A stretch of 64,000 bases of DNA. Origin: Treponemataceae bacterium. GTDB taxonomy: Bacteria > Spirochaetota > Spirochaetia > Treponematales > Rectinemataceae. Of the stretch, positions 49,660 to 64,000 are shown piece after piece. The DNA lies in the NCBI GenBank assembly GCA_963678065.2, contig CAXXVZ010000002.1:512001-576000 (forward strand), given 5' to 3'. The stretch's first letter is position 1; each line of letters begins with the position of its first letter. Under the pieces are notes generated by a model. It was not told where the DNA came from and ran no database searches. It saw only the letters and a list, made by a program, of their open reading frames with translations. Position numbers and translations under genes: made by a program.

Positions 49660-50466
49660 TCATTTGAGTCCGGCCCGCTCCCTCGCTTTTTTCGCGACCG
49701 AGTCGACCTGGCCCGCGAGCTCGCCTGAGGTGAAGGCCCTCATGGCGGCGGCGACACCGAGACCGGGATTGCGCATGCCCGAGGTCGAGAAAGTGCGCAT
49801 GTAGAGCATCTTCTTCCCGCCCACATCGATTTCCTTGAGATACCACGACGAGTCGGCGGCATAGAGTTTGCCGTCGAGGCTCTCGGTCATCCTGTAGCGG
49901 AAGCCGGCGGCGCCGTCGGGCAGGTTGTCCCGGTACGACTCGAGGCGGAGCTTGTAGCCTATCCTGATGCCGAGGAAGTTGATGCCGATCTCCTCGTAGA
50001 CTTTGATCGATCCCTCCGCGCGATCCTCCACTTTGGCTTCCTGGAGTCGGGGAGAGATGGTCTTGAGCACGGGGTAATCCCAGAGAAGCGTGGCGACAGC
50101 CTCGAGCGGGACCTCGTAGATGCCGTGAGCCTCGCCGGTGCCGAGCACGCGCCTTTCGCCGGGGACTTGCTCGGGGTTTATCACGTCGACGGCGAAGGAC
50201 TCCGACCTGCCCGCCAGTTTCGCGGCGCCGGCCTCGTCGAGGTTTCCTGCGCCTCCCGGCCCGGTCGCTCCGTAGCGCAGGTTGAAGCCCGCGAAGCTCG
50301 TGAGGGTGCCGCCGTTGACCGCGGCCGGGGGTGCCGCCGCAGAGCCCGCAGGCGAAGCACCCTGAGCGGCCGAGAGCGGGGCGAGGCCCGCGGCGCAGAG
50401 AAGTATTCCGGCGGCGAGGCTTCCCACGAGGCGCCGAGCCACCGTCATGCCCTGTTTCGGCTCCAT
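49660..50466 (-). CDS. Exported hypothetical protein, possibly START/SRPBCC fold
   Basis: Signal-like segment; VPLEAVATLLWDYPVL..ISP pattern; follows parB directly. Confidence 0.55.
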   Translation of the reverse strand: MEPKQGMTVARRLVGSLAAGILLCAAGLAPLSAAQGASPAGSAAAPPAAVNGGTLTSFAGFNLRYGATGPGGAGNLDEAGAAKLAGRSESFAVDVINPEQVPGERRVLGTGEAHGIYEVPLEAVATLLWDYPVLKTISPRLQEAKVEDRAEGSIKVYEEIGINFLGIRIGYKLRLESYRDNLPDGAAGFRYRMTESLDGKLYAADSSWYLKEIDVGGKKMLYMRTFSTSGMRNPGLGVAAAMRAFTSGELAGQVDSVAKKARERAGLK

Positions 50467-50480
50467 GAAAGTCCCTCCCC

Positions 50481-51536
50481 TCATCTGCCGAGAACCTCGA
50501 TGATGCGGTCGAGATCCTCGAGCGAATAGTATTCCACTTCGACGATTCCCTTCTTCGCGCTGCCCTTGATGCTGACCTTGGTGCCGAGGCTCTGGATGAG
50601 TTTCTGTTCCACGGCGACGAGGTCCGGATCGCGGTTGGCGGCTTCGGCGGCCTTTCTGGCGGCCTTGGCCTTGCGCGCGCTTCCCGGAGCCGCGGCGAGG
50701 ACTGCCTGGGCGGCATCCTCGGCCTGGCGCACCGAGAGGGATTCCTCCGAGATGCGGGCGAAAAGCTTGTCGCGCACCGGCGCGTCGGGCAGAGCCAGAA
50801 GCGCGCGCGCGTGGCCTGCCGTAATGACGCCCGAGCGGAGCGACTCGAGCATGCGGGGCGAAAGTTTGAGGAGGCGGACGGCGTTGGCGATGGCGGAGCG
50901 GCTCTTGCCCACGGCCTCGGCGATCTCGTCCTGGGTGGCCCCGGAGAGTTCCATGAGGCTCCGGTAGGCCTCGGCTTCCTCGACCGGGTTCAGGTTCTCG
51001 CGCTGGATGTTCTCGATGAGCGAGATCTCGAGGCGCTTCGCTGGCGTGAACCTGCGGACGATGGCCGGGATCTCCGCGAGGTCTGCGCGCAGAGCCGCGC
51101 GGTAGCGGCGTTCTCCCGCGATGATGCGGTAGAAGCTTCCTTCCTCAGACGGATCGCTCCCCGGCGCCCGGATTCCGCTTTCCGCGCGCGAGTCGATCTC
51201 GACGAGGATGGGCTGGATGAGGCCGTGTCTCTTTATGGAAGAGGCGAGTTCTTCTATGGATTCCTCGGGGAAATCCTTGCGGGGCTGGTCGGGGTTGGGT
51301 CTGATGCGGGCGAGAGGGATGATGAGAATCTCCTCGCCTTCCGGGAGGGTGCCCATGCCCGACGTCGCGCGGCCGTCGGAACTCGCGGCCACATCCGTCG
51401 ACCCGCCGACTGGCGCCGTCTCTCCGGGGCCGAAGCCCATCGCGACCTCGACTCTGTCTCCGGGCGCGCCGCGCACGGGAAGCCGTTCGGGGATGAGGGC
51501 CCCGAGTCCCTTTCCGAGACCGAATTTATTCGCCAC
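50481..51536 (-). CDS. parB: Chromosome partitioning protein ParB/Spo0J
   Basis: GLGKGLGALI, PNPDQPRK, IIAGERRYRA, LIENIQRENL, GHARALL. Confidence 0.95.
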   Translation of the reverse strand: MANKFGLGKGLGALIPERLPVRGAPGDRVEVAMGFGPGETAPVGGSTDVAASSDGRATSGMGTLPEGEEILIIPLARIRPNPDQPRKDFPEESIEELASSIKRHGLIQPILVEIDSRAESGIRAPGSDPSEEGSFYRIIAGERRYRAALRADLAEIPAIVRRFTPAKRLEISLIENIQRENLNPVEEAEAYRSLMELSGATQDEIAEAVGKSRSAIANAVRLLKLSPRMLESLRSGVITAGHARALLALPDAPVRDKLFARISEESLSVRQAEDAAQAVLAAAPGSARKAKAARKAAEAANRDPDLVAVEQKLIQSLGTKVSIKGSAKKGIVEVEYYSLEDLDRIIEVLGR

Positions 51537-52284
51537 GCTCGATTATCTCCTTTGCCAACGCCTCGTAGCTGCGCGCTCCGATGCAGGTCGGATCGTAGAG
51601 GCAGACGGGAAGCCCGTGCGAGGGCGCTTCGGACAGGCGCACATTGCGCGGCACGATTGTCCTGAACACGCGGTCCTTGAAGTACTCTGTGACCTGACGC
51701 ACGACTTCCTGGGCGAGCCGCGTGCGCGAGTCGTACATAGTGAGCATGATGCCTGAGACCTTGAGCCCGGGGTTCATGCTTTTCTGCACAAGCCCGACGG
51801 TCTGCAGGATGAGCGAGAGACCTTCCAGGGCGAAATACTCGCACTGGAGCGGTATGCAGACCTCCTGGGCGGCATTGAGCCCGTTGAGCGTCAGGATTCC
51901 GAGGGAGGGAGGGCAGTCTATGAGTATGAAATCGTACGTGTCGGATACGGTGGCGATCGCCCGCTTCAGGTAGTCGTTGCGGTCGGGCTTGTCGACGAGT
52001 TCGACCGTCGCGCCGGAGAGATCTATGGAAGACGGCACATAGGAGAGGCCGGGAACTTTGGACTCATGCACCACTTCGACGAGTTCCATCTGCCCCGTGA
52101 TGACCTGGTATATGCCTTTGTCGCGGGCGGAACCGCCCACGCCGCTCGTCATGTTCCCCTGCGGATCGAAATCGACGAGGAGGGTCCGCTTCCCCGCGAG
52201 GGCGAGATAGGCCCCTATGTTTATGGCGCTCGTGGTTTTGCCCACACCGCCTTTCTGGTTCACGAAAACGATGATTCGAGCCAT
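51526..52284 (-). CDS. parA: Chromosome partitioning ATPase ParA/Soj
   Basis: NQKGGVGKTT, DFDPQGN, IDCPPSLG, QCEYFALEG, PRNVRLSEAPSHG. Confidence 0.96.
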   Translation of the reverse strand: MARIIVFVNQKGGVGKTTSAINIGAYLALAGKRTLLVDFDPQGNMTSGVGGSARDKGIYQVITGQMELVEVVHESKVPGLSYVPSSIDLSGATVELVDKPDRNDYLKRAIATVSDTYDFILIDCPPSLGILTLNGLNAAQEVCIPLQCEYFALEGLSLILQTVGLVQKSMNPGLKVSGIMLTMYDSRTRLAQEVVRQVTEYFKDRVFRTIVPRNVRLSEAPSHGLPVCLYDPTCIGARSYEALAKEIIERGE

Positions 52285-52480
52285 GCAGCCTCTCCGCTCC
52301 GGATTCGTTCCGAGTGTATCACACTCCGTCAAAAATTACCTAGTCCGGGACAGGGAAGCGGGGATACCGCGAAGCGCCGGACAGACTGCGACGCGAAGGC
52401 AGACGGGCCATGCAAGGGCAGGCCGGAAACTTGACCCTGCGGCGGATGGAAGGGTACATTCGAGGGACAAGGAGTTCCTT

Positions 52481-52705
52481 ATGATCGTCGAACAGGTCAA
52501 GAAAGCGATAGAAGAAGTGCGCCCCTCCCTCCAGGCTGATGGCGGCGACATCGAGCTCGTCTCCGTGGAAGAGGACGGCACTGTCAAAGTCCAGCTCACG
52601 GGCGCCTGCGGTTCCTGCCCCATGTCCACATTCACCCTCAAGCAGGGCGTCGAAGCCTATCTCAAGAAGACCATCCCCGAAGTGAAGGAAGTCGTCCAGG
52701 TCTGA
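52481..52705 (+). CDS. NifU-like (Nfu) Fe-S carrier domain protein
   Basis: VRPSLQADGGDIEL...GACGSCPMS..TLK. Confidence 0.92.
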   Translation: MIVEQVKKAIEEVRPSLQADGGDIELVSVEEDGTVKVQLTGACGSCPMSTFTLKQGVEAYLKKTIPEVKEVVQV

Positions 52706-52805
52706 TCCCGCTACTTTCGGGACCCGCGAAGCCTGAGCGCGGTACGTCAGCCGCTCAGGCTCCGACACGGGAAACGGAGCCTGGTCTGCGAGTCGAAGTA
52801 CAGGC

Positions 52806-53618
52806 TTATTTCCCCATCTTCGACTCGAACCACCGGAACAGCGCTTCCGCCCGGTTCGAGAATGAAACTTCGAGCTTTCCCTTGAATATGCCGGGCGCCT
52901 CCGCCCCGCTCTCCGCGTAGAACACGATCGCGTCCTCCGCCCTGATGAGAAAGAGGCGGGTGGAGAGAGCCCCAGCCGCCATGACGGGCACCAGTCCGTA
53001 GTTCATCCTCGTCAGGTTAGTCTGAGTGACGAGGAAGTTGTCCTCCGAAAACGAATAGTCATACCGGTAGACATTGGAGCCGAAGCTGAGATCGCGCTGA
53101 AAGGCGAAGAAGGACTCGGCGGCCGGAATCTTGCCGGGCAGGGGTGCAGGCGGGTCGGGAATTTTTTTCCGGGACTCGGGGCTCTCTATCCTGTAGGATT
53201 CGGCGTAGAAGGTGCGCAGTTCGTTGCGGCTCGCCGACCAATACTCGATGCCCTGGAGCGATCCTACAGATCTCAGGTAGCCGTAGATTCCGGCCAGCTC
53301 TGCGGCCGCCGCCGCGGGGTCCTGCGGTCTGGGCCGTGCCAGGGAGAAGAGGGTCTCGACGAGAATGCTCGACTTGGATGACGCGATCGCCGCCTTCAGC
53401 ACCGCGGACGTGGGATGATCCGGCAGGAGAGACGGCTCTCCCTTGTAGGCGACGCGCACCACTCTTCCCGTCGTCGCGAGGGAGCCGACGACGGTCTTGC
53501 CGTACAGGCTCTCAAGGGTATACGGCCGGACAGACTGGGCGCCGATGTTCACGCTCCCGGACAGCAGCAAAAATGCGAGGCACATGAGGGTCGGGACGGG
53601 CCGGATGGGCATCTTCAT
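52806..53618 (-). CDS. Exported spirochaete-type hypothetical protein (DUF6675-like)
   Basis: Signal peptide; LQGIEYWSASR, QRDLSFG, SFSNRAEA..WF, recalled from Treponema proteins. Confidence 0.6.
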   Translation of the reverse strand: MKMPIRPVPTLMCLAFLLLSGSVNIGAQSVRPYTLESLYGKTVVGSLATTGRVVRVAYKGEPSLLPDHPTSAVLKAAIASSKSSILVETLFSLARPRPQDPAAAAAELAGIYGYLRSVGSLQGIEYWSASRNELRTFYAESYRIESPESRKKIPDPPAPLPGKIPAAESFFAFQRDLSFGSNVYRYDYSFSEDNFLVTQTNLTRMNYGLVPVMAAGALSTRLFLIRAEDAIVFYAESGAEAPGIFKGKLEVSFSNRAEALFRWFESKMGK

Positions 53619-53770
53619 ACGCCTACTATACCACGTTTGAGCCCCTCTATGCACAGGGCGTTCCGATCATATATACAGAGCATGCGAAATCCCCTCAAAC
53701 CCCACACGCATCCAGCCATAAAGGCCTCGCCCCCAAGGGCGCCTTTTGGGTTCCGAAGGAGACCACGGCA

Positions 53771-55432
53771 ATGACGATCCTCACACTAGTACTGGAATTG
53801 GTCGGAGGTCTGGCAATGTTCATGCACGGCATGGAATTGACCAGTGACGGCATCCAGCGCGCGGCGGGGAACAGGCTGCAGCGCACCGTCAATTTCATGA
53901 CGAAGAACAGGGTCATGGCTGTACTCACGGGAACGCTCGTCACCATCCTGATCCAGTCCTCATCGGCGACGAGCGTCATGGTCGTATCCTTCGTGAACGC
54001 CGGTCTACTCTCTCTCGTTCAGGCCATCGGCGTCATCATGGGCACCAACATAGGGACGACCCTCACGGGCTGGATCATCGCGGCGGTCGGCGTCGGAAAG
54101 TTCAGCGTCGCCGCCCTCGCCGTGCCCATTTTCGGACTCGGCTTCTTCATGTCGCTCATGAAAAAGCGATCTGACTCCTTCAGAAGTTACGGTACGGTGT
54201 TCATGGGATTCTCCATGATTTTCCTCGGCCTCGGTTTCATTTCGGAATCCATCCCAAAGCCCTCAGGCGACGTCCTGTACTTCCTCCAGAATTTCTCCAA
54301 CCTCGGATTCCTCTCCATAATCATCGCCGTCCTGGTCGGCACGGTCTTCACCATCCTCGTCAACGCCTCGAGCGCGACGCTCGCCATCGTCATAGCCCTC
54401 GCCACCGAAGGCGTGATCGATTTCCGCATGGCCGCGGCCCTCACGCTCGGCGCCAACATCGGCACGACCTTCGACGCCTTCCTGGCCTCATTCGCCACCA
54501 ATGTCGACGGCAAGAGAGCCGGTTACGCCCACATCCTCTTCAACGTCTTCGGGACCCTCTGGGTCATCGCGGTCTTCGACCCATTCCTCAAATTCGTGGA
54601 CTTCGTGACGCCAGGAGAGATCACTCCCGCCACTCTCGGCGTCCACATCGCCATGCTGCACACCCTGTTCAACACCTGCAACACGATCATCCTTCTGCCC
54701 TTCGTGAATCAGTACGCCGCATTTATGCGTAAAATTTTCCCGGACAAGCCCGGCACGAAAGGACAAGTCCTCGTCTACCACCCCCAGCCGATCCTGCCCA
54801 CGCCGGAACTCTCCATCATCCACGCACGGAAGGAAATATCCGACATGTCTATCCTTGCGCGCGAGATGTTCCTTCGCGCCCGCGACGGACTCGTCACCTT
54901 GCCCGAAAACATGGAGACCGAACTCGAGTGGTTCGGCAAGCGCGAGAGCTACGCCGACTCGATGCAGGAAGAGCTCACTCGCTACCTTCTCACCATCAAC
55001 CGCCAAGACGTCAACGCCCGAACCGAAGAAAACCTCGGCCAGCTCATGCACATGGTAGACGACCTCGAAAACATCACCGATTCCTGCCTGAGCCTCGCCT
55101 ACCTCCTCGAACGCCAGGGCAAAAAACAGCTCATCTTCGGGAAGAAGGAGTCCACGGGACTCTTGCCCTACACAGCCCTCGTCGACGAATTTCTCGCCTT
55201 CATTGTCGGGAACATCGGCGGCCAGCTCTCGCCGGAGCAGCTCGACCTCGCGGGGGAATACGAGAATCGGGTCGACGCGATGCGCAAGGAGCTTAAAAAG
55301 AAGGCACAGAAGCGTCTTAGGGAGGGCAGCGAAGTCAAAGCCGAATTGCTCTTCCTCGACATCATCCGGCAGATCGAGAAGATCGGCGATCACGCCTTCG
55401 GAGTGGCCGCAGCCCTCAAAGCTCTTACATGA
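53771..55432 (+). CDS. Na/Pi cotransporter family protein with C-terminal PhoU-like domains
   Basis: QSSSATSV, GTNIGTT, GANIGTT, DLENITD, IEKIGDH. Confidence 0.92.
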   Translation: MTILTLVLELVGGLAMFMHGMELTSDGIQRAAGNRLQRTVNFMTKNRVMAVLTGTLVTILIQSSSATSVMVVSFVNAGLLSLVQAIGVIMGTNIGTTLTGWIIAAVGVGKFSVAALAVPIFGLGFFMSLMKKRSDSFRSYGTVFMGFSMIFLGLGFISESIPKPSGDVLYFLQNFSNLGFLSIIIAVLVGTVFTILVNASSATLAIVIALATEGVIDFRMAAALTLGANIGTTFDAFLASFATNVDGKRAGYAHILFNVFGTLWVIAVFDPFLKFVDFVTPGEITPATLGVHIAMLHTLFNTCNTIILLPFVNQYAAFMRKIFPDKPGTKGQVLVYHPQPILPTPELSIIHARKEISDMSILAREMFLRARDGLVTLPENMETELEWFGKRESYADSMQEELTRYLLTINRQDVNARTEENLGQLMHMVDDLENITDSCLSLAYLLERQGKKQLIFGKKESTGLLPYTALVDEFLAFIVGNIGGQLSPEQLDLAGEYENRVDAMRKELKKKAQKRLREGSEVKAELLFLDIIRQIEKIGDHAFGVAAALKALT

Positions 55433-56066
55433 GGGTTTCAGGCAGACTGTAGACTTCCGAGACCTTCTCGATGAGGATGGCCCCCATGCCGAGCGCGAGA
55501 GCGGGAGCGAGGTCGACGTCGTAGCGGTCGCCGACAGAGACGAGATCGGCATACTGCGTTCCCAGCCGGGCGGCCGCGAGCATAAAGGGCGCGGGGTCGG
55601 GCTTGCTCTTCAGGGTATCGTCGAGCCCGACGACGACCGTGAAACAGTCCCGGATGCCGAGCGCGTCGAGACTCGCGGTCCCGACGGAGCATGGATTGTT
55701 CGTGACGAGGGCGAGGGGGAAGCGGGCGGCCAGGGAGGAAAGGGCGCGGGCGAGTTCGGGATCGGGCCGGAGCCACTCGGCGGGTCGGATGCCCTCCTCG
55801 CGCCAGCGCGCACTCGTGGCGATGTCGACGCCGAAGGCGGCCGAGAGATTGGCCATGCTGGTCGGCGGCAGCCCCACCGCGGCGCGTTCAGCCTTGAGAC
55901 GCGCGAGTTCGGCCCGGGCGCCGGCCAGATCGGTCCCGAGGAAGCCGGCGAGCCGCTCTTCCAGTATTCTGGCCTGAAAATCCGTGTAGGCCGCGTTCGT
56001 GTACAGCGTGTTGTCGAGATCGAAGATCAGGGCAGAAATCTGCCCTGGCAGGCGAAAAACCTTCAC
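55425..56066 (-). CDS. HAD-superfamily phosphatase
   Basis: C-terminal part of track ORF 55425..57389; FDLDNTLY, VTNN, KPDP, VGDRYDVD; GTG start overlaps prs stop. Confidence 0.85.
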   Translation of the reverse strand: MKVFRLPGQISALIFDLDNTLYTNAAYTDFQARILEERLAGFLGTDLAGARAELARLKAERAAVGLPPTSMANLSAAFGVDIATSARWREEGIRPAEWLRPDPELARALSSLAARFPLALVTNNPCSVGTASLDALGIRDCFTVVVGLDDTLKSKPDPAPFMLAAARLGTQYADLVSVGDRYDVDLAPALALGMGAILIEKVSEVYSLPETLM

Positions 56067-57427
56067 AGATCGTCGGCGGGTTCGAAGGGAATGGGCTCGT
56101 CGAGCCCCTCCTGTCCGGCCGGAGGCTCCTGCTTCTGCGCCGCAAAGGCGTGCGCTTGCTGGGAAGTCGCCGGCTTCACGCCGGACTGCTTGTCCATCTG
56201 CTTCTTGATCAGCTTGGCGACCACGTCGCGGTTGTCCAGCATCGAGGAGAGCGAGCGGTCGTGGTGGATGAGGCTGATGATCTGGGCGAACAGCCCCGTG
56301 ACGTCTGCCTGGATGAACCACTCGCGGTCCGAGAGCTCGGTGTTGCGCACGGCGTTGGTCCCGATGATGCGGTAGAACAGTCCCTGCTTGTAGGCGGCGT
56401 CGAAGTCGTTGATGGCGTTTCCGGAAAAGAAAGGCAACGAGACCGCCGAGATGACTTTGGTGGCTCCCATTTCTTTCAGGTTCTTCATTCCCTTGATGAG
56501 GGTTCCGCCGGTCCCGATCATGTCGTCGGCCATGAAGACCGTCTTGCCGCGCACGTCGCCGAGGAGCTTCATCTCGCTGATGTTGGTCTCGGAGGCGCTC
56601 TTGGTGACCTTGGAATAGTCGCGCTCCTTGTAGAGGAGGGCGAGCGGGCGCTGGAAGGCATTGGCGTAGAACTTGTTGCGGTCGACGGCGCCGGTGTCGG
56701 GCGCAAGCACGACGAGGTCGTCTTTCTTTATGTCGATTATGCCGATGAGTTTTTCGATGATCTGGAAGGAGGCGTGCAGGTTCTCGACTCTCAGGTTCGT
56801 GAAGCTGTTTTCGATCTCCCGCGAGTGGATGTCGAGGGTGATGATGCGCGAGACGCCGAGATTTTCCAGCATCTGGCCGACGCGGGCGGCGGTGAGGCCC
56901 TCGCGTCCCTTTTTCTTGTGCTGGCGGGCGTAGGGATAGGAGGGCAGGACGAGATTGACCCGCCCGGCGCCGGCTTCCATGGCCGCATCTATCGTGACGA
57001 AGAGGGAGAATATGTGGTCGTTGACGGAAAATTGCTTGTGCGTCGTGCCCTCGTTGAAGGCGATGGGCTGATGGTTTTCGATATCCTGGAAAATGTAGAG
57101 ATCCTTGCCCCTGACCGATTCGAGGATCTCCGTCTTGACCTCTCCGTTGGCGAAGAAGGTGTGCCGTGTGTTGATCTTGAGGCGGGGAGGGCGATACTGG
57201 TTCACGTTGCCGGGGATATAGGAGAGGCTCGAATTGGTATCCTGCGCGAAGTTGATCTTGCGGGTGACCAGTTCCTGGGAAAGGTGGTAGCGGGACGCGA
57301 GAGCTGCGGTCTTTCGGTCGAAACGGCGCTTGTAAATCCCGGCGAGCCTGCGGATCACCTGATCCGCGAAAGCCTCGCCGCCGGGGCAAGCAAGAATTCC
57401 GAGCTTTGAAGGATCAGAGTAGCTCAT
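56063..57427 (-). CDS. prs: Ribose-phosphate pyrophosphokinase (long form)
   Basis: FANGE, YPYARQ, TLDIHS, PDTGA, KER, DDMIGTGGT. Confidence 0.93.
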   Translation of the reverse strand: MSYSDPSKLGILACPGGEAFADQVIRRLAGIYKRRFDRKTAALASRYHLSQELVTRKINFAQDTNSSLSYIPGNVNQYRPPRLKINTRHTFFANGEVKTEILESVRGKDLYIFQDIENHQPIAFNEGTTHKQFSVNDHIFSLFVTIDAAMEAGAGRVNLVLPSYPYARQHKKKGREGLTAARVGQMLENLGVSRIITLDIHSREIENSFTNLRVENLHASFQIIEKLIGIIDIKKDDLVVLAPDTGAVDRNKFYANAFQRPLALLYKERDYSKVTKSASETNISEMKLLGDVRGKTVFMADDMIGTGGTLIKGMKNLKEMGATKVISAVSLPFFSGNAINDFDAAYKQGLFYRIIGTNAVRNTELSDREWFIQADVTGLFAQIISLIHHDRSLSSMLDNRDVVAKLIKKQMDKQSGVKPATSQQAHAFAAQKQEPPAGQEGLDEPIPFEPADDL

Positions 57428-57641: not shown

Positions 57642-58631
57642 TCAGAGCAGCTTCCGGCTGCTCACCCTCACGTTGATGATGACAGCGAGGGCGATGACGA
57701 GGCCGACGAACGCGTCCTGGATGTACGCGTCGGTTCCGAGGAGGACCAGGCCCGTCCGCACCTCGGCCATGATGAAAGTCCCTATGAACGAGCCGATGAT
57801 GCTTCCGATGCCGCCCGACATCGAGGTGCCGCCGATCACCGCCGCCGCTATCGCCTCGAGCTCGAGACTGGTTCCCTGCGTTGGGGTGACCGTTTTCAGG
57901 TATCCGAGCGAAACAAGGGATGCGAGCCCGGCCGCCCCGGCGGTAAGAAGGAAGCAGATCCTCTTTATGTGGACGGTCTTGATGCCGGCGAGCTCCGCGG
58001 CGTCGCGGTTGTCTCCCGACGCATACACCCGGACTCCGAACGTCGTGCGGTGCAACACGACGTACATCGCGATCCCCCACGCGAGCACCCAGAAAACAGG
58101 GACAGGAATCAGTCCAAACAACTCCGAACGGCCCATGATGCCGTAGAAGGGGTTGTCGTCGAATGTGGATATCGGCTGCCCCTGCGAGAGGACCATCGCG
58201 ATGCCCCGAAAGACCATCATCGTCGAGAGTGTGGCGATGAAGGAATTGATTTTTGTGGTTGTGACGAGGAGTCCGTTCAGATAGCCGAGGATGAGAGCGC
58301 TCGCGAGACCAAGCACGGCCGAAAGCCAGATGTTCAGACCGAGATTCTTCGTCAGAAGTCCGGTGACAACTCCGGTGACGGCGAATATGGCGCCGACGGA
58401 CAGATCGAATTCTCCGGCGATGATGAGAATCGTCATCGACATCGCGATGATCCCGAGCCCCGCCGTCTGGCGGAGGAGGTTGAAGAAATTGTACGCCGTC
58501 AGGAAGACCGGCGACGTGAGCGAAAAAAATATCCCGATGAGTATGGCCGCGGCCACTACGCCGAAGTCCCGGAATCCGACAAAGCGCCTGATGACGGAGC
58601 CCTTGCCTGAAGATGATGTGCCGTTTGCCAT
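57642..58631 (-). CDS. Monosaccharide ABC permease (RbsC-like)
   Basis: FDLSVG, FIATL, GDNRDAAELAGI, ELEAIAAAVIGGTSMSGG. Confidence 0.92.
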   Translation of the reverse strand: MANGTSSSGKGSVIRRFVGFRDFGVVAAAILIGIFFSLTSPVFLTAYNFFNLLRQTAGLGIIAMSMTILIIAGEFDLSVGAIFAVTGVVTGLLTKNLGLNIWLSAVLGLASALILGYLNGLLVTTTKINSFIATLSTMMVFRGIAMVLSQGQPISTFDDNPFYGIMGRSELFGLIPVPVFWVLAWGIAMYVVLHRTTFGVRVYASGDNRDAAELAGIKTVHIKRICFLLTAGAAGLASLVSLGYLKTVTPTQGTSLELEAIAAAVIGGTSMSGGIGSIIGSFIGTFIMAEVRTGLVLLGTDAYIQDAFVGLVIALAVIINVRVSSRKLL

Positions 58632-58655
58632 GTTTCGCGCTCCTTGTGTTCCGCC

Positions 58656-60146
58656 TCAGGTGCTCGAAGCGAGGACGAGATCGTCCTTGGTCGCCTTGTC
58701 GCCGGGAAGAAGGATTTTCATCCGTCCCTTGCTCATCACCAGGATGTCGTCCGAGAGCCGGAGAAGCTCTTCGTGTTCCGACGAAGCGATGATGAACGAG
58801 TACCCCTGGTCCGCGAGGTCTTGGATCAATGCCAGAATTTCCTGTTTCGCGCCGACGTCGACGCCGCGGGTCGGCTCGCTCATCACTATGAGCCGCGGAC
58901 GCAGGGCGAGCCAGCGGGCGATCAGCACTTTCTGCTGATTGCCGCCCGACAGGGAACTCACGGGCGCGTCGGGGCCGCTCATCTTGATGTGGACATCCTG
59001 CGACGCGCGGGCCGTCGCCTGGCGAAGCTTCTTTTCGTTCACGAACGCGCCGCCGGAAAAACGGTCGATGCCCGGCATGCACAGATTCAGTTTGACGTCC
59101 AGGTGGTGAAAAAGCCCGAGCTTCTTCCGGTCTTCCGGAACCATGCCGATACCATGGCCGATGGCCTCGGCGGGAGAGGAAATGCGACATTCCTTTCCGT
59201 CGATCAGGATCGTTCCGGAATCAGCCGGGGGGGAGCCGAACAGCGCGCGCGCGATCGCCGACCTGCCCGACCCGGCGAGTCCCGCTATTCCGAGGATGCC
59301 GCCCCGCGCGACAGAAAAACTGACATCGTCGAACTCCCCCCCGAGCCCGAGATTCCTGACCTGCAACAGGGTTTCCCCGCGCGGTTTGACCGTCCTGCGC
59401 ACCACCGTCTCCAGCCGCCTTCCCGCTATCATGGACGAGATCGCGCGGGTGTCGAACTCTCCCTTTTCCAAGGAGCCGATGAACGAGCCGTCGCGAAATA
59501 CGACAATCGAATCGCAGAGCGAAACCAGCTCTTCGAGCATGTGGCTGACGAACAGGAAAGTGACTCCGCGATCGCGAAGCCGCCGTATGATGGTGAACAG
59601 ACGCTCGACTTCCGGCGGTGTGAGCGCGGTAGTCGGTTCGTCGAGAATGATGAAGGATGCGTTCCGCGACAGGACGCGCACGAGAAGTGCGAGCTGCGTC
59701 TCGGCCGTCGAGCAGTCCCTGACGAGCCGCGTAGGATCGATGTCCTCTCCGAGCAGATCGGCGTACAGTCGCCGGCATTCCTCGTTCATGCGCTTCCAGT
59801 CGGGGGAGAGCCCCTTGCCCGGCATCGCCGGTCCCAGGAAGACATTGGCCGCGACCGACAGGTGGGGGCAGACGGGGATTTCCTGGTGGAACACGCTGAT
59901 CCCGCGCTTCTCCGCCTCTTCCGGACCCTTGGGGCGGTAGGCTTCTCCCCGGAGCTCAAGCGTGCCGGAATCCGGCTTGTGGACTCCGCAGAGGATTTTG
60001 ATGAGAGTGGATTTGCCGGCTCCGTTTTCTCCCGCAAGCCCGACAATGCTCCCCTTCTCCACGGAAAAGGAGACGGAATCGAGGGCCTTCGTGGATCCGA
60101 AGCTCTTGCTGATCGAGTGAATGGCAAGTATCGGGCTGCTGCTCAT
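58656..60146 (-). CDS. Monosaccharide ABC ATPase, tandem NBD (RbsA/MglA-like)
   Basis: GENGAGKST, LDEPTTAL, VSH, GLAGSGRS, PEDRK, LSGGNQQK, EPTRGVDVGAK. Confidence 0.93.
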   Translation of the reverse strand: MSSSPILAIHSISKSFGSTKALDSVSFSVEKGSIVGLAGENGAGKSTLIKILCGVHKPDSGTLELRGEAYRPKGPEEAEKRGISVFHQEIPVCPHLSVAANVFLGPAMPGKGLSPDWKRMNEECRRLYADLLGEDIDPTRLVRDCSTAETQLALLVRVLSRNASFIILDEPTTALTPPEVERLFTIIRRLRDRGVTFLFVSHMLEELVSLCDSIVVFRDGSFIGSLEKGEFDTRAISSMIAGRRLETVVRRTVKPRGETLLQVRNLGLGGEFDDVSFSVARGGILGIAGLAGSGRSAIARALFGSPPADSGTILIDGKECRISSPAEAIGHGIGMVPEDRKKLGLFHHLDVKLNLCMPGIDRFSGGAFVNEKKLRQATARASQDVHIKMSGPDAPVSSLSGGNQQKVLIARWLALRPRLIVMSEPTRGVDVGAKQEILALIQDLADQGYSFIIASSEHEELLRLSDDILVMSKGRMKILLPGDKATKDDLVLASST

Positions 60147-60155
60147 GGCTTCCCC

Positions 60156-60195
60156 GGCGGAATGCCGGACCCGTCAGTGGATCCGGCATTCCGCC
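60156..60195. other. 14-bp inverted repeat between binding-protein and ATPase genes
   Basis: GGCGGAATGCCGGA...TCCGGCATTCCGCC. Confidence 0.6.
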
Positions 60196-60297
60196 ATGCA
60201 GGTTTCATTGTCCGCTCGCGAAAGCGGCCGATGTGCGTATATGGTACCCGTGTCGCCGCGATGGCATTGCGCCTCGCCGCCGTGGCGACACGATCCG

Positions 60298-61251
60298 TCA
60301 GCGGTATCCCTTCGCCGCCAGATCCATGACCGCCTTCACGTTCTCGGCCGTGACGGGAGCGATGCCGGTGTTGATATCGCAGGGCGTCAGGCTGTACTTC
60401 TTGAGCAGATACAGTTCGACGACACTCTGGTATCCCTGCAGATAGGGTTGCTGATCGATCGTGAACGACATGGTGCCCTTGGTGATGCCCGCGAGCACAT
60501 CGGCGACGAGGTCGAAGCCTCCACCGACGACCTTGCCCTTGAGCTTGTCGCGCTCGATGATCTGGGCGATCGCCGAACCGGTCACGTCCTCGACCCCGAA
60601 CATTCCCTTGATCGCGGGATTGGCCTGGTAGGCGCTACCGATGAGGGACACCGCCTTGACCATGTCGGTTCCGGTAGCCACGACCCGGTACTTGAACTTT
60701 CCACCCTGGGCGTCCAGAACGTCTTTAACGCCCTTGATGCGGGCCTCGAGGTTTTCCGCGCCGGCGGTGTGGATGCACAGAAGAACGTCGCCGCCTGCGG
60801 GCAGGAGCTTGACGACCTGCCGTCCCATGGACTGTCCGGCCTCATAGTTGCCCTGGCCCACGTAGGCGAGGCGGCCGGAGGCCGGAGCGTCGGCGTTCAG
60901 CGCGATCACCGGTATGCCCTTCGACATCGCTTCCTTTACGACATCGTTGAACGCGGATGTGTCGGGCATCGTGGTCGCGATGCCATCGACTTTCTGGGCG
61001 ATGGCGGACTTGATGTAATCGATCTGTTTCTGGATGTCGAATCCGGAAGGCCCGGTGTAGACGACATCGCAGCCCAGGTCCTGGCCCGCTTCCTCGGCGC
61101 CTTTCCGTACGGGCACGAAGAAGGGAACCGCTGTGGCGTGTGTGATCACCACGAATTTATACTTTTTCGCCTGGGCCGCTCCGCTCATGACCGGCAGGGT
61201 CGCCAGAACCGCCGCGAGCAACAGTACCGATCCGAGACCTTTTCTGACCAT
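60298..61251 (-). CDS. Monosaccharide-binding periplasmic protein (RbsB-like)
   Basis: Signal peptide from MVRKGL, YVGQGNYEAG, GFD, IDQQPYLQGY; GAGG RBS. Confidence 0.9.
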   Translation of the reverse strand: MVRKGLGSVLLLAAVLATLPVMSGAAQAKKYKFVVITHATAVPFFVPVRKGAEEAGQDLGCDVVYTGPSGFDIQKQIDYIKSAIAQKVDGIATTMPDTSAFNDVVKEAMSKGIPVIALNADAPASGRLAYVGQGNYEAGQSMGRQVVKLLPAGGDVLLCIHTAGAENLEARIKGVKDVLDAQGGKFKYRVVATGTDMVKAVSLIGSAYQANPAIKGMFGVEDVTGSAIAQIIERDKLKGKVVGGGFDLVADVLAGITKGTMSFTIDQQPYLQGYQSVVELYLLKKYSLTPCDINTGIAPVTAENVKAVMDLAAKGYR

Positions 61252-61341
61252 GGAGTCCTCCTTGTTGTTCCCCTCCGCAGCCTGTTGAGGCGATCCGCGC
61301 GCCGGCCGGAGGGAGATCGAATGCAGGTGCACCGCCATGTC

Positions 61342-61357
61342 TGCACGTTTCATGCCA
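61342..61357 (-). promoter_or_regulatory. Sigma-54 (-24/-12) promoter of the sugar ABC operon
   Basis: Minus strand TGGCATGAAACGTGCA versus consensus TGGCACG-N4-TTGC(A/T), exact GG-N10-GC spacing, about 90 bp before the start. Confidence 0.72.
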
Positions 61358-61515
61358 GAGAACATACAATGCCCGCATTTCCGGAAATATCCTGAAGATT
61401 CGCGCGAGATTACATCGTTTTCAAGTATCCGCGTTCTTTTGCGCACCAGAACACGTTATCTGGGCGGAGGCGGCGGTCTGGAAACGATTCCGGCTTGCGG
61501 GAACCGGGAAGCGGT

Positions 61516-61563
61516 TGTACAGTAAATGTACAGCCTGAACAGCGAGTGTACAAAATTTGAACA
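61516..61563. promoter_or_regulatory. Tandem enhancer (UAS) sites for the sigma-54 activator
   Basis: TGTACAGTAAATGTACA (61516-61532) and TGTACAAAATTTGAACA (61547-61563), both TGT-N11-ACA, 31 bp apart. Confidence 0.6.
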
Positions 61564-62894
61564 CGACCATCCTGATCGTCGACGACCGGATCATGCTCTG
61601 CGAAAGTCTCCAGGCGAGCCTGGAAGAACGGGGTTACCGCGTCCTCATCGCGACCTCGGGCGGCATGGCGGTCGACATGTTCCACAACGAGAACATCCAG
61701 GCTGTCCTGCTCGACATCCGGCTCGGCGAGGAGGACGGAATGACTATCCTCCCGCGCCTCGCGACGATCGATCCCCTGGTTCCGGTGATCGTGATAACCG
61801 GCTACGGGACGGTGGAAAGCGCCGTGACCGCGATCAAGGAAGGGGCATTCGATTATCTCGAGAAGCCCGTCAAGGTCGAAAAACTGCTCATCGTCCTGGA
61901 GAACGCGATCCGGATGTCCGCCCTGGCGCGGGAAAACCGCGAACTGAAACGGAAAGGCTGCCTCTTCGCCTTCACGACCCGTTCAAGGGACATGAAATCT
62001 ATGCTCGAACGCGTGACCCGACTCGCGATCTCCGATTTGCCCATACTCATCCGGGGGGAGAGCGGCACCGGAAAGGAGCTGGTGGCGGAATACATCCACC
62101 AGACTTCGCCGCGGGCCCAGGGAACGCTCGAAAAGATCAACTGCGCCGCCTTCCCGGAAAGCCTGCTCGACAATGAACTGTTCGGCCACGAGAAGGGAGC
62201 CTTCACCGGCGCGGATTCGGTTTTCCGCGGAGTGTTCGAGCGGGCCCATGGTGGTACGCTCTTCCTGGACGAAGTCGGCGACATGCCCCCCGCTATCCAG
62301 GCCAAGATCCTGCGGGCGATACAGAACAAGGAAATCAGGCGGATCGGCGGATCGACCACGATCAAGGTCGACATCCGCTTCCTGGCCGCCACGAACCAGG
62401 ACCTCGAGACCCTGGTCGCGGAGGGCGCTTTCCGCAGCGATCTTCTGTACAGGCTCAATGCCGCGACGGTGCGGGTGCCCCTGCTTTGCGAGCGACCGGA
62501 AGACATTGTGCCGCTCGCCGAAAAAATGCTCGCCGACCTGGCGTCCGCGGACCGCCAGTGGCGACTATCCCCGGAAGCCGCGGTCGCCCTGGAGCGCTAT
62601 TCCTGGCCGGGCAATGTGCGCGAACTGAAAAGTGCGGTCCACTATGCCTGCACTGTCGCCCTCGATCCCATGATCCGGGAGCGCGACCTGCCCGAGAGCC
62701 TCGCCCTTCCCGTATCAGAGGACAGGAGACTCGGAGTGAGGGAAGGCGCCGAACGCTCCCTCATCCTGCGCACTTTGTCGGAGACCGGACACAACAAGAA
62801 GAAATCTGCGCAGATCCTTCAGATGAGCAGGGTGACGCTGTACAATAAGATGAAGAAGTATGGAATCGGAAGCGACGCCCCTCGTCCGGCTTGA
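61557..62894 (+). CDS. Sigma-54-dependent response regulator (NtrC/AtoC family; REC-AAA+-Fis HTH)
   Basis: IVDD, LLD phosphoacceptor, GESGTGKE, ELFGHEKGAFTGA, LFLDEVG, WPGNVREL, SRVTLYNKMKKY; TTG start. Confidence 0.95.
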   Translation: MNTTILIVDDRIMLCESLQASLEERGYRVLIATSGGMAVDMFHNENIQAVLLDIRLGEEDGMTILPRLATIDPLVPVIVITGYGTVESAVTAIKEGAFDYLEKPVKVEKLLIVLENAIRMSALARENRELKRKGCLFAFTTRSRDMKSMLERVTRLAISDLPILIRGESGTGKELVAEYIHQTSPRAQGTLEKINCAAFPESLLDNELFGHEKGAFTGADSVFRGVFERAHGGTLFLDEVGDMPPAIQAKILRAIQNKEIRRIGGSTTIKVDIRFLAATNQDLETLVAEGAFRSDLLYRLNAATVRVPLLCERPEDIVPLAEKMLADLASADRQWRLSPEAAVALERYSWPGNVRELKSAVHYACTVALDPMIRERDLPESLALPVSEDRRLGVREGAERSLILRTLSETGHNKKKSAQILQMSRVTLYNKMKKYGIGSDAPRPA

Positions 62895-64000
62895 GGGTAT
62901 ACAGGTCCGATACGGCAGTCTCACCGTGCTGGGGAACCTGCATTTTTCCCTTGTCCCCGGAGAAATCCACGCGATAGTCGGCGAACACGGCGCGGGCAAG
63001 TCCACGCTGGCCCGGGTGATCGCCGGAGCGATCAGACCGTCGGCCGGCCGGGTTTCCTGGGAGGGGCGGCAGAGGGCTTTCTTCAACCGCGACATAGCGC
63101 GGAACCTCGGCATCGAGTTCGTCGCGCAGGAGACGAGCATCTTCCGTCACCAGTCGGTGGCCTTCAATCTTCTCGTCAACAGGAAAAGTCTTTTCCCCGG
63201 CCCGCTCTTCAGCCCGCACCGGAATGTCGAAGAGGCGGAGCGCTACCTCGCGCGGATGGGCGTATCGATACCGGCGCGCGCCCTCATGGAGGGGCTCGCC
63301 CTCCCGGACAGGGTACTCATCGACATCCTGAGCTGCCTGTACGCGGGGCCGCGGCTCCTTATCCTGGACGAGGCCCTCGAAAAGCTGTCCGCCGAGGACC
63401 TCGCCAGGGTCCGCCCGCTCCTGCGGGGCATAGCCCGCTCAGGCGGCTGTGTCCTTGTGATCACCCACCGGATCGACGACATGTACAATCTCGCCGACAG
63501 CCTCACCATTCTCCGCGCGGGCAAAATCCTGATGACGGACAGGGTGCGCAACATCGACAAGGTGAGTGTCATCAAGCTCGCCTACACACAGATCATGAGC
63601 CGTCCGGAAGCCGAGGACATGAACGAGGAATTCCACCACTTCCTCAAGTACAACGAGGCGGTTCTCGAACATCTTCCGGTCAGCCTGGTGATCGTCGACC
63701 GGAACGGGAAGATCAAAATGTACAACCGCCGGGCGCAGGAATTTTTCGACCTGCCGCAGGTGCCGGCTGGAGAGCGGGGGATCGAACTCCTTTTCCGGCC
63801 GGAGGAAGAGGACGCTATCGCCGCGGTTTCCGCGGCGATAGAGAGGCGGGTTCTGGATTGCGCGTACGGCATGAGGCTCCGGAAAGGAAAGGGCGACCGG
63901 ACGGTCGATTTTACGTACAATCCCATTTTCGACGGGGATCACTTCATAGGGAGCATGCTGATCTTCAATGACATCACCGAGCAGGAAGAGCTGCGCGCGG
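62860..64000 (+). CDS. Partial ORF (runs off window): RbsA-like ABC ATPase domain fused to a PAS domain; probable sensor histidine kinase
   Basis: Hand-translated, no stop in 380 codons: GEHGAGKST, FVAQE, LLILDE, VITH, then VLEHLPVSLVIVDRNGKIKMYN...LIFNDITEQEELRA; overlaps the regulator 3' end by 35 bp. Confidence 0.85.
   Translation, partial: MESEATPLVRLEGIQVRYGSLTVLGNLHFSLVPGEIHAIVGEHGAGKSTLARVIAGAIRPSAGRVSWEGRQRAFFNRDIARNLGIEFVAQETSIFRHQSVAFNLLVNRKSLFPGPLFSPHRNVEEAERYLARMGVSIPARALMEGLALPDRVLIDILSCLYAGPRLLILDEALEKLSAEDLARVRPLLRGIARSGGCVLVITHRIDDMYNLADSLTILRAGKILMTDRVRNIDKVSVIKLAYTQIMSRPEAEDMNEEFHHFLKYNEAVLEHLPVSLVIVDRNGKIKMYNRRAQEFFDLPQVPAGERGIELLFRPEEEDAIAAVSAAIERRVLDCAYGMRLRKGKGDRTVDFTYNPIFDGDHFIGSMLIFNDITEQEELRA

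Follow-up and report, generated by a model that had tools for sequence, protein, structure and literature searches.

What use could a soluble histidine kinase make of a nucleotide-binding domain (NBD) taken from a sugar importer? The question is raised by the far end of a 64,000-nucleotide stretch of the genome of a Treponemataceae bacterium (contig CAXXVZ010000002.1, positions 512,001 to 576,000; G000:C2:512001-576000), which is referred to below as the window. An open reading frame (ORF) that begins there at ATG 62860 and has no stop up to position 64000 was described in an earlier note, made from the DNA letters alone, as an ATP-binding cassette (ABC) NBD running into a PAS domain; its product was forecast to be a soluble kinase acting on an overlapping sigma-54 regulator and, through it, on a divergent sugar importer. 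As far as sequence can tell, the protein represents a conserved histidine-kinase architecture, found without description in the literature searched, and is a variant of transporter-coupled two-component signalling. In all probability this two-component system induces the neighbouring monosaccharide importer of the CUT2 class, and on balance we lean somewhat towards direct contact with the importer as the means by which the kinase senses it.

A soluble histidine kinase with an ABC domain

Read beyond the window, the ORF stops at coordinate 64692 and encodes 610 amino acids, in which Pfam recognizes, each over its cut-off, ABC_tran (residues 25-173), PAS_4 (269-376), HisKA (393-450) and HATPase_c (499-607). 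All of the motifs that had been claimed for the part within the window are present: Walker A, GEHGAGKST (residues 41-49; 62980-63006), is followed by FVAQE, LALPDRVLIDIL, LLILDEALEKL, ITH and DITEQEELRA. The forecast kinase core lies past 64000 and contains the H-box GVAHEINNPL with acceptor H400 (PF00512, 34.4 bits against a cut-off of 26.9) and the HATPase_c domain (PF02518, 57.1 bits). H400 is present in 100% of the 149 homologues described below, as are N512, D544, G546, G573 and G575 of the N, G1, F and G2 boxes, and by these residues the catalytic core is an intact HisKA/HATPase_c. The highest 19-residue hydropathy is only 1.54 and the kinase is therefore without a membrane segment, as had been noticed for its visible portion and now holds over the full 610 residues; values of at least 1.8 occur in at most 9 of the 149 family members. 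The protein is by these features a soluble histidine kinase, for which autophosphorylation and transfer to the regulator are predicted.

The NBD-PAS junction, which the earlier note had singled out as a possible assembly error, is real, since single contigs cover the entire kinase gene without an indel in three of four sequencing runs (X3, X5 and X6, from three studies, DNA or unlabelled; one of the three may be the source sample). An assembly artefact as the origin of the fusion is ruled out by these spanning contigs and by the conserved full-length homologues. RNA contigs from one small-share run overlap parts of the binding-protein, ATPase, permease, regulator and kinase genes; they were not counted, as DNA carry-over is possible.

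In a full-length model (pLDDT 76, pTM 0.44) the domains are good and their arrangement is not fixed, the linker at residues 234-265 having a pLDDT under 50. The model matches solved structures only as separate NBD or PAS-kinase pieces, and the structure search found no solved structure covering the whole fusion. Fold searches with the PAS domain returned generic PAS matches only, with Z scores of 12.4 to 10.3 across the top 50 and none standing out; the PAS model fits many PAS domains equally and points to no particular ligand. Mean column conservation is 0.49 in the post-NBD linker, 0.60 in the signalling helix and 0.37 in the PAS core.

Size and distribution of the family

The earlier note had proposed a domain-architecture search. 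Of the 120 best homologues listed, a number that includes the query itself, 119 combine PF00005 (ABC_tran), PF00512 (HisKA) and PF02518 (HATPase_c) in about 560-640 residues, the exception being a 478-residue piece. Their automatic names, where present, point to Spirochaetales or Treponema. With more distant members from an unindexed search, 278 proteins were collected, 247 of them full-length; 149 were left below 60% identity, and these are 25-51% identical to the query. Genomes were searched with a 110-sequence family alignment as query. Within the window's own lineage there were matches in 14 of the 401 phylum members searched (three candidates scored for each), in 17 of 301 genomes at the level of the order and in 14 of 69 at that of the family; in the KSB3 phylum 7 of 9 genomes have the kinase, in up to six copies. 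No member turned up among 151 genomes drawn from the phylum to which a Chloroflexia genome belongs (E 1e-70; eight candidates scored per genome), and plasmid records held no fusion covering 80% of the query. A motif scan of contigs, dominated by its generic H-box pattern, gave full-length fusions at 6 of 80 loci. On this sampling of sequences the family occurs in Spirochaetota and KSB3 with a conserved architecture; the same family is also listed in the ESM Atlas (score 0.99, 62 members).

A search for shorter forms returned apparent fragments and ordinary ATPases, as judged by names and scores only, and an apparently longer architecture, P0212 (851 residues), was rejected as a duplicated-segment artefact. 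ESM Atlas leads scoring under 0.9 include ABC_tran-GAF_2-HisKA clusters of 852 residues (166 members) and 826 residues (64 members), commonest in Actinomycetota, which are possibly an independent fusion of like kind. Four kinase copies are carried by genome G457 and six by G479. Regulator-kinase cassettes are paired close together, with an importer near each, at L063:4968-11812, L133:1604-12700 and L108:5576-15147. In four metagenome-assembled loci (L008:2646-4450, L091:8849-10698, L114:9081-10677 and L098:9038-10612) the kinase gene is frameshift-split or truncated, through assembly error or decay.

Origin and residues of the ABC domain

The best NCBIfam matches of residues 3-244 are RbsA, XylG, LsrA, YtfR and AraG, all with scores far under the family cut-offs. 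The domain is 28% identical to NBD1 of the neighbouring tandem ATPases, 21% to their NBD2 and 24-26% to three single-domain CUT2 ATPases, and the fusion point falls where NBD1 of the tandem ATPases ends. The kinase ABC domain is, on this evidence, derived from NBD1 of RbsA-type (CUT2) ATPases, in keeping with the proposal that the input module is a repurposed transporter ATPase. A copy of the ATPase next door it is not: local duplication is ruled out, own-locus NBD1 being closest in just 3 of 36 kinases with a locus ATPase. In a quick tree, built with no approximately unbiased test and with a long branch for L108_K1, a split with an SH-aLRT of 72 separates the 39 kinase NBDs from the rest, which gives modest support to one old origin.

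The motifs expected of a CUT2 NBD1 (Walker A, Q-loop, Walker B DE and H-loop) are all found in the query, which shares with RbsA, XylG, LsrA, YtfR and AraG the same half-site with a degenerate signature. The report of a degenerate signature was correct in that the region concerned (residues 146-152) has no signature motif, and an SGG-type signature occurs in 0 of 149 kinase NBDs; it is not a peculiarity of the kinase, since LSGGQ is missing from NBD1 of the neighbouring motor ATPases too. The working site of tandem ATPases pairs the NBD1 Walker motifs with the NBD2 signature, and RbsA has one degenerate site according to PMC11466899. A CUT2 motor ATPase has either two NBDs or one with a signature, as in the single-domain ATPases of loci L092 and L100, which do carry SGG, whereas the kinase has one NBD and no SGG. 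It further differs from the CUT2 ATPases in family-specific features: H43 replaces the invariant Walker A Asn (74%), the D-loop reads ALEKL or ISSKL instead of PTxxL with loss of the P of DEPT, the MVGR linker of NBD1 is replaced by LAYTQ, and a C-terminal NBD helix carries Y242 (93%). Walker A and the D-loop are elements that face each other across NBD dimers. In a mutual-information analysis the division into two subfamilies outweighed other signals, the H43-D-loop pairs ranked low, and the result points to no interface.

Among the 149 homologues G41 is conserved in 97%, K47 in 96%, S/T48 in 97%, Q90 in 79%, D170 in 97%, E171 in 89% and H203 in 71%. These figures bear on whether the NBD is just an anchor holding the kinase to the transporter or the membrane, or a stabilizer of the dimer, with the signal coming from another partner or being constitutive. 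We regard such a passive role as improbable: the Walker A K and S/T and the Walker B D are all kept in 142 of the 149 at the low identities given above, and a passive tether would need none of them. In its favour are that all six ATP-site residues, complete in the query, are kept in just 89 of 149, that many members of the subfamily-B branch drop H203, Q90 or H43, and that the domains of the full-length model are not fixed relative to one another, its linker being poorly modelled.

Conserved neighbourhood of the kinase genes

The neighbourhoods of 68 kinase genes were examined: the window's own, six fusion loci (seven genes), the non-self phylum and family matches, and 15 of 21 further KSB3 matches (the other six KSB3 matches, four new order-level matches and L136, a duplicate of L133, were left out). 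Some of these genes are frameshifted or cut by contig ends, and the counts include related genomes, which are not independent samples. Immediately upstream of the kinase, and on its strand, there is a sigma-54 regulator in 66 of the 68 cases, both misses being at contig ends, and a CUT2 permease is encoded within 6.5 kb in 64, the misses being L090, L099 (contig end), L138 and L139; the co-occurrence that the earlier note had asked after is thus pronounced. A MetI-type permease is as near in only 1 of 68 (two MetI seeds were assigned solely by the adjoining SBP_bac_1 gene). The linkage to CUT2 holds across both phyla and both kinase subfamilies. The window's genome, with 5.3 Mb, is very rich in transporters: its ORFs include about 40 for two-NBD ATPases, 46 for CUT2-type permeases and about 152 for those of the MetI type. 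As background, 9.6% of random positions in it have a CUT2 permease within 6 kb, as have 4 of 32 kinase-core hits, this kinase included.

Of the 68 neighbouring two-NBD ATPases, 64 have intact motifs, and because nearly every locus has a motor for its permease, the kinase does not replace a missing one. A spare permease is lacking at nearly all loci. It is very improbable, then, that the importer uses the kinase NBD as a motor subunit, working or spare, with the kinase riding along; the query's Walker A, Walker B, Q-loop and H-loop would suit that role, but the signature missing from every kinase NBD and the lost P of DEPT would not.

The few kinases without a near transporter invited the idea that their NBDs have decayed, which was dropped: L138 and L139 are normal, and the changes in L090 are common to L089, which has a transporter. 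The L090 cassette (L090:4807-16127) has no importer; its strong sigma-54 site points at a gene for an Ig-like/ice-binding protein, and the kinase is followed by LacI and araBDA genes. The nearest transporter at L138 (L138:14927-19901) is an importer of the branched-chain amino acid type, whose permeases are also BPD_transp_2, and a CUT2 importer lies immediately downstream in L141, a close relative with a 95% identical NBD. The window's genome also holds a second sigma-54 two-component system adjoining a xylose-like CUT2 importer (L119:3892-11367; G000:C4:778000-796000); its kinase, examined by eye, appears to have membrane segments, an outer sensor region and no NBD, and would be a conventional counterpart.

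The regulator and its probable target

The regulator had been described as overlapping the kinase and as NtrC-type with an intact phosphoacceptor and GAFTGA, and so it is: it overlaps the kinase start by 35 nt and is a REC-AAA+-HTH protein with acceptor Asp D53 and GAFTGA at residue 214, a motif found as such or as a near variant in 36 of 39 regulators read. Pfam likewise recovers the divergent rbsB/A/C-like genes as Peripla_BP_4, a two-NBD ATPase and BPD_transp_2; the structure search found no solved structure matching the permease.

A sigma-54 promoter at the importer had also been claimed. The candidate -24/-12 site, some 90 bp ahead of the binding-protein start, is weak taken alone (2 matches in the window against 0.56 expected) and gains weight from its recurrence in relatives. 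In the first set 43 kinases had a regulator and sufficient flanking sequence; the transporter is divergent in 29 of them, and a site stands on the transporter-facing strand in 24 of these 29, on the regulator strand in 1 of 29, and in 1.8% of shuffles; sites were scored as at least 9 of 11 positions against a -24/-12 consensus, and represent a sequence match and not a transcription read-out. A second set of loci, mostly from KSB3, has the same promoter pattern. An array of TGWACA-N5-TGWACA palindromes lies 160-205 bp upstream of the promoter, over the regulator's own start, and these candidate sites occupy the position expected for an activator. The pattern has 4 matches against none in 100 shuffles, a flattering control since the pattern was derived from the same sequence; in its exact form it is almost private to the window locus, and looser palindromes (TGT-N11-ACA-like) occur near the regulator start in several relatives. 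Because the sigma-54 sites face the transporter and candidate activator palindromes lie upstream, the importer operon is very likely the regulator's target.

The TTG start of the regulator falls within the last palindrome, which suggests autorepression. In the relatives L105-L107 and L098 a -10-like hexamer stands directly ahead of the regulator ATG and would fit leaderless messages.

Divergence of cassette and importer

In 18 modules dereplicated from 34, the NBD, PAS domain, kinase core and regulator co-diverge (r 0.75-0.89), as do ATPase and permease (0.61), with values of -0.14 to 0.00 between the two groups. The kinase NBD tracks the regulator (r 0.79) but not the ATPase (-0.03) or the permease (0.00), and for this reason the regulator-kinase pair is best seen as having been repeatedly re-attached to different importers, always of the class from which its NBD came. 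Close-kin loci are inherited as a whole. L108_K0 and L111_K0 belong to different kinase subfamilies, yet their flanking transporters have 72% identical permeases. The comparison cuts both ways: it gives no sign of a partner-specific interface, yet the CUT2 class appears always to have been kept.

How the kinase might sense the importer

Direct contact with the importer, the reading towards which we lean, would work as follows. The kinase would be a dimer whose two NBD1-like domains bind ATP and form no hydrolytic site together, because neither has a signature motif. Their point of contact would be on the importer's cytoplasmic side, at the coupling helices of the permease or at NBD2 of the motor ATPase. 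When a sugar-loaded binding protein drives the transport cycle, a change would run through the conserved C-terminal helix of the NBD, the N-terminal helix of the PAS domain and the signalling helix to H400, with activation or release of inhibition as the sign of the signal. Phosphate would then pass to D53 of the regulator, which would bind the palindromes at 61516-61563 and fire the promoter at 61342-61357, and induction of the importer by its own use would amount to positive feedback on uptake. In favour of contact are the lack of any membrane or periplasmic sensor in the kinase, the linkage to CUT2 importers, which persists through re-pairing, the source of the NBD in a CUT2 ATPase, its retained ATP-site residues, and a post-NBD linker and signalling helix that are better conserved than the PAS core.

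As to the partner, we tentatively propose that the kinase NBDs dock on the coupling helices of the permease in place of the motor ATPase. Two kinase NBDs might plug both coupling helices of the CUT2 permease dimer, so that one binding protein and permease would serve two ends: joined by the RbsA-type ATPase they would pump sugar, and joined by the kinase they would act as a sugar receptor without transport; held with the same reserve, this would be an adaptor re-attached to many monosaccharide importers in two phyla. The RbsA, RbsB and RbsC proteins of E. coli reportedly form differing subcomplexes by nucleotide state, one of them without RbsA; if so, the coupling helices would be free at times, which could explain the restriction to CUT2. 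Pairing of the kinase NBD with NBD2 of the motor ATPase comes into consideration because the intact LSGGNQQ of NBD2 complements the half-site kept by the kinase, and is to our mind the more doubtful arrangement.

Several observations weigh against contact, and in particular against docking on the permease. Four positions that we provisionally assign, after the maltose transporter MalFGK2, to the coupling-helix cleft are eroded in the kinases compared with 24 transporter NBD1s: position 52 is K in 92% of the latter and K or R in 44% of the kinases (R52 in the query), and E91, P96 and G107 stand at 92%, 71% and 75% against 21%, 28% and 3%. The NBD does not co-diverge with permease or ATPase at depth, a trace that a specific interface might leave. 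With motor ATPases intact and no spare permease, the kinase would compete with the motor, and with about 40 similar ATPases in the genome and one such kinase, specificity needs explaining. L090, L138 and L139 lack a near CUT2 permease without being cut by a contig end, the NBD motifs of the latter two being normal, and linkage alone also fits a plain regulator next to its target.

Compared with transporter NBD1, the overall fold and hydrophobic pattern of the kinase NBD are kept and the cleft-assigned K52, E91, P96 and G107 are eroded; taken together with the retained ATP-site residues and the altered Walker A and D-loop, this suggests that ATP binding is under selection, that the NBD-NBD face has been remodelled and that the permease face is relaxed or diversified. 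The same pattern can be read as cytoplasmic sensing without contact, in which the imported sugar, or something derived from it, is bound by the PAS domain or else by the remodelled NBD, the NBD pair acts as an ATP-dependent dimer clamp or energy gate, and the importer is both the target and the inducer's route. On this account the ATP-binding residues would be the best-kept part of the NBD, as they are, and the cleft-assigned ones relaxed. The family-specific changes fall in Walker A and the D-loop, opposite each other in an NBD dimer; the PAS domain is the most variable kinase domain (26% mean identity), as expected if ligands differ among loci; and one kinase among about 40 similar transporters is more easily accommodated by ligand specificity. 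We nevertheless consider sensing without contact somewhat unlikely, for it leaves unexplained why re-paired cassettes keep CUT2 importers and avoid the commoner MetI type, and the PAS domain has neither a conserved pocket motif nor a standout structural match.

Relation to known systems

To our knowledge, known ABC-transporter-coupled kinases rely on separate proteins or adaptors. MalK is an importer ATPase that controls the activator MalT without the use of a kinase, KdpD has a regulatory ATP-binding input domain that is not an ABC NBD, and CbrA and CrbS are kinases fused to a membrane SLC5 transporter domain, not to a soluble ATPase domain. BceS is membrane-anchored and BceR of the OmpR type, whereas here we find a soluble kinase, a sigma-54 activator and a sugar importer. 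The closest parallels in ABC-transporter-coupled kinase signalling are BceAB-BceS/BceR and PstSCAB-PhoU-PhoR, as presented in PMC6978683. In the former, from Bacillus subtilis, an ABC transporter serves as co-sensor for a kinase without a ligand sensor of its own and the system controls transporter genes, but BceS is a separate kinase interacting with BceAB, an efflux-type resistance transporter (PMC6978683), whereas here a transporter NBD lies within the kinase chain; the BPD_transp_2 importer, the absence of a membrane segment and the sigma-54 regulator all set the locus apart from a Bce-type module. In the E. coli PstSCAB-PhoU-PhoR/PhoB system the kinase, without a canonical periplasmic sensor, receives its signal from the ATPase side of the importer (PstB), and the separate adaptor PhoU is required (PMC6978683), whereas here the NBD-like domain is covalently fused, the importer is of the sugar type, no gene lies between importer, regulator and kinase in the window, and no adaptor gene recurs in the loci. 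AtoS and AtoC are the best matches of the PAS-HisKA-HATPase core (residues 254-607) and of the regulator, but the scores are under the cut-offs (191 against 646 and 400 against 714), and unlike AtoS/AtoC and the NtrB/NtrC-type pairs the input region is an ABC NBD.

The earlier note knew of no characterized protein of this architecture. A full-text literature search aimed at the fusion found no paper describing such a protein; another brought up reviews and studies in which the co-sensors are separate proteins. Nor did the literature searched, which lay mostly outside subscription journals, contain a kinase with an ABC NBD as its ATP-gated regulatory domain. The terms 'ABC', 'histidine kinase' and 'fused' do not occur in the main text of PMC4312070, a paper on KSB3 genomes, whose supplementary Table S8 on sensor domains could list the architecture. 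That paper ties the outgrowth of KSB3 in reactors to increases in glucose or maltose (PMC4312070).

The route from transporter state to kinase is still poorly resolved, and here the coupling part seems to be built into a soluble kinase as an ABC domain. If contact is real, it would constitute a new class of input domain for histidine kinases, with a monosaccharide importer turned receptor, and would help to account for the way in which spirochaetes, and KSB3 filaments with their up to six copies, sense sugar. The residues for mutation are defined (K47, D170, E171, H43 and the D-loop) and the read-out, one sigma-54 promoter, is simple.

Features of the locus and adjoining genes

Table 1. Features of the kinase locus (window coordinates unless stated otherwise)
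Feature	Position	Strand	Basis or remarks
RbsC-type permease (BPD_transp_2), single gene	57642..58631	-	Pfam
RbsA/XylG-type two-NBD ATPase	58656..60146	-	intact: NBD1 GENGAGKST, NBD2 LSGGNQQK
CUT2 sugar-binding protein (Peripla_BP_4), 317 aa	60298..61251	-	Pfam
Candidate sigma-54 -24/-12 promoter, TGGCA-N7-TGCA, facing importer operon	61342..61357	-	pattern scan
TGWACA-N5-TGWACA palindrome array	61516-61532, 61536-61552, 61547-61563	.	candidate regulator binding sites
NtrC/AtoC-type sigma-54 response regulator, 445 aa	61557..62894	+	REC-Sigma54_activat-HTH_8, D53, GAFTGA
Histidine kinase gene, 610 aa	62860..64000, on past the window to 64692 (G000:C2:574860-576692)	+	ORF and Pfam
Kinase layout by residue			ABC NBD 8-243; PAS with N-terminal helix about 253-376; HisKA (H400); HATPase_c
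NBD1-like ABC domain	62881..63588	+	Walker A, Q90, Walker B/D-loop LILDEALEKL, H203, C-terminal helix KLAYTQ
PAS domain with N-terminal helix EFHHFLKYNEAVL, ending DITE	63616..63987	+	generic PAS fold

Downstream of the kinase in the window's genome, shortly beyond the end of the window (L001:10711-19941), 18 nt past its stop and on the same strand, lies a gene for a beta-lactamase-family serine hydrolase of 399 residues, followed on the opposite strand by a GH38 alpha-mannosidase (1126 residues) and two ORFs (633 and 526 residues) without a Pfam match at 1e-5; these neighbours may hint at a mannose- or glycan-related substrate. On the other side, 49660-57427 of the window holds housekeeping neighbours of the importer locus, assigned by eye or with Pfam: a ribose-phosphate pyrophosphokinase (56063-57427, Pfam) and what we take, from their motifs, to be a Na/Pi cotransporter-like gene (53771-55432) and parA/parB-like genes (50481-52332).

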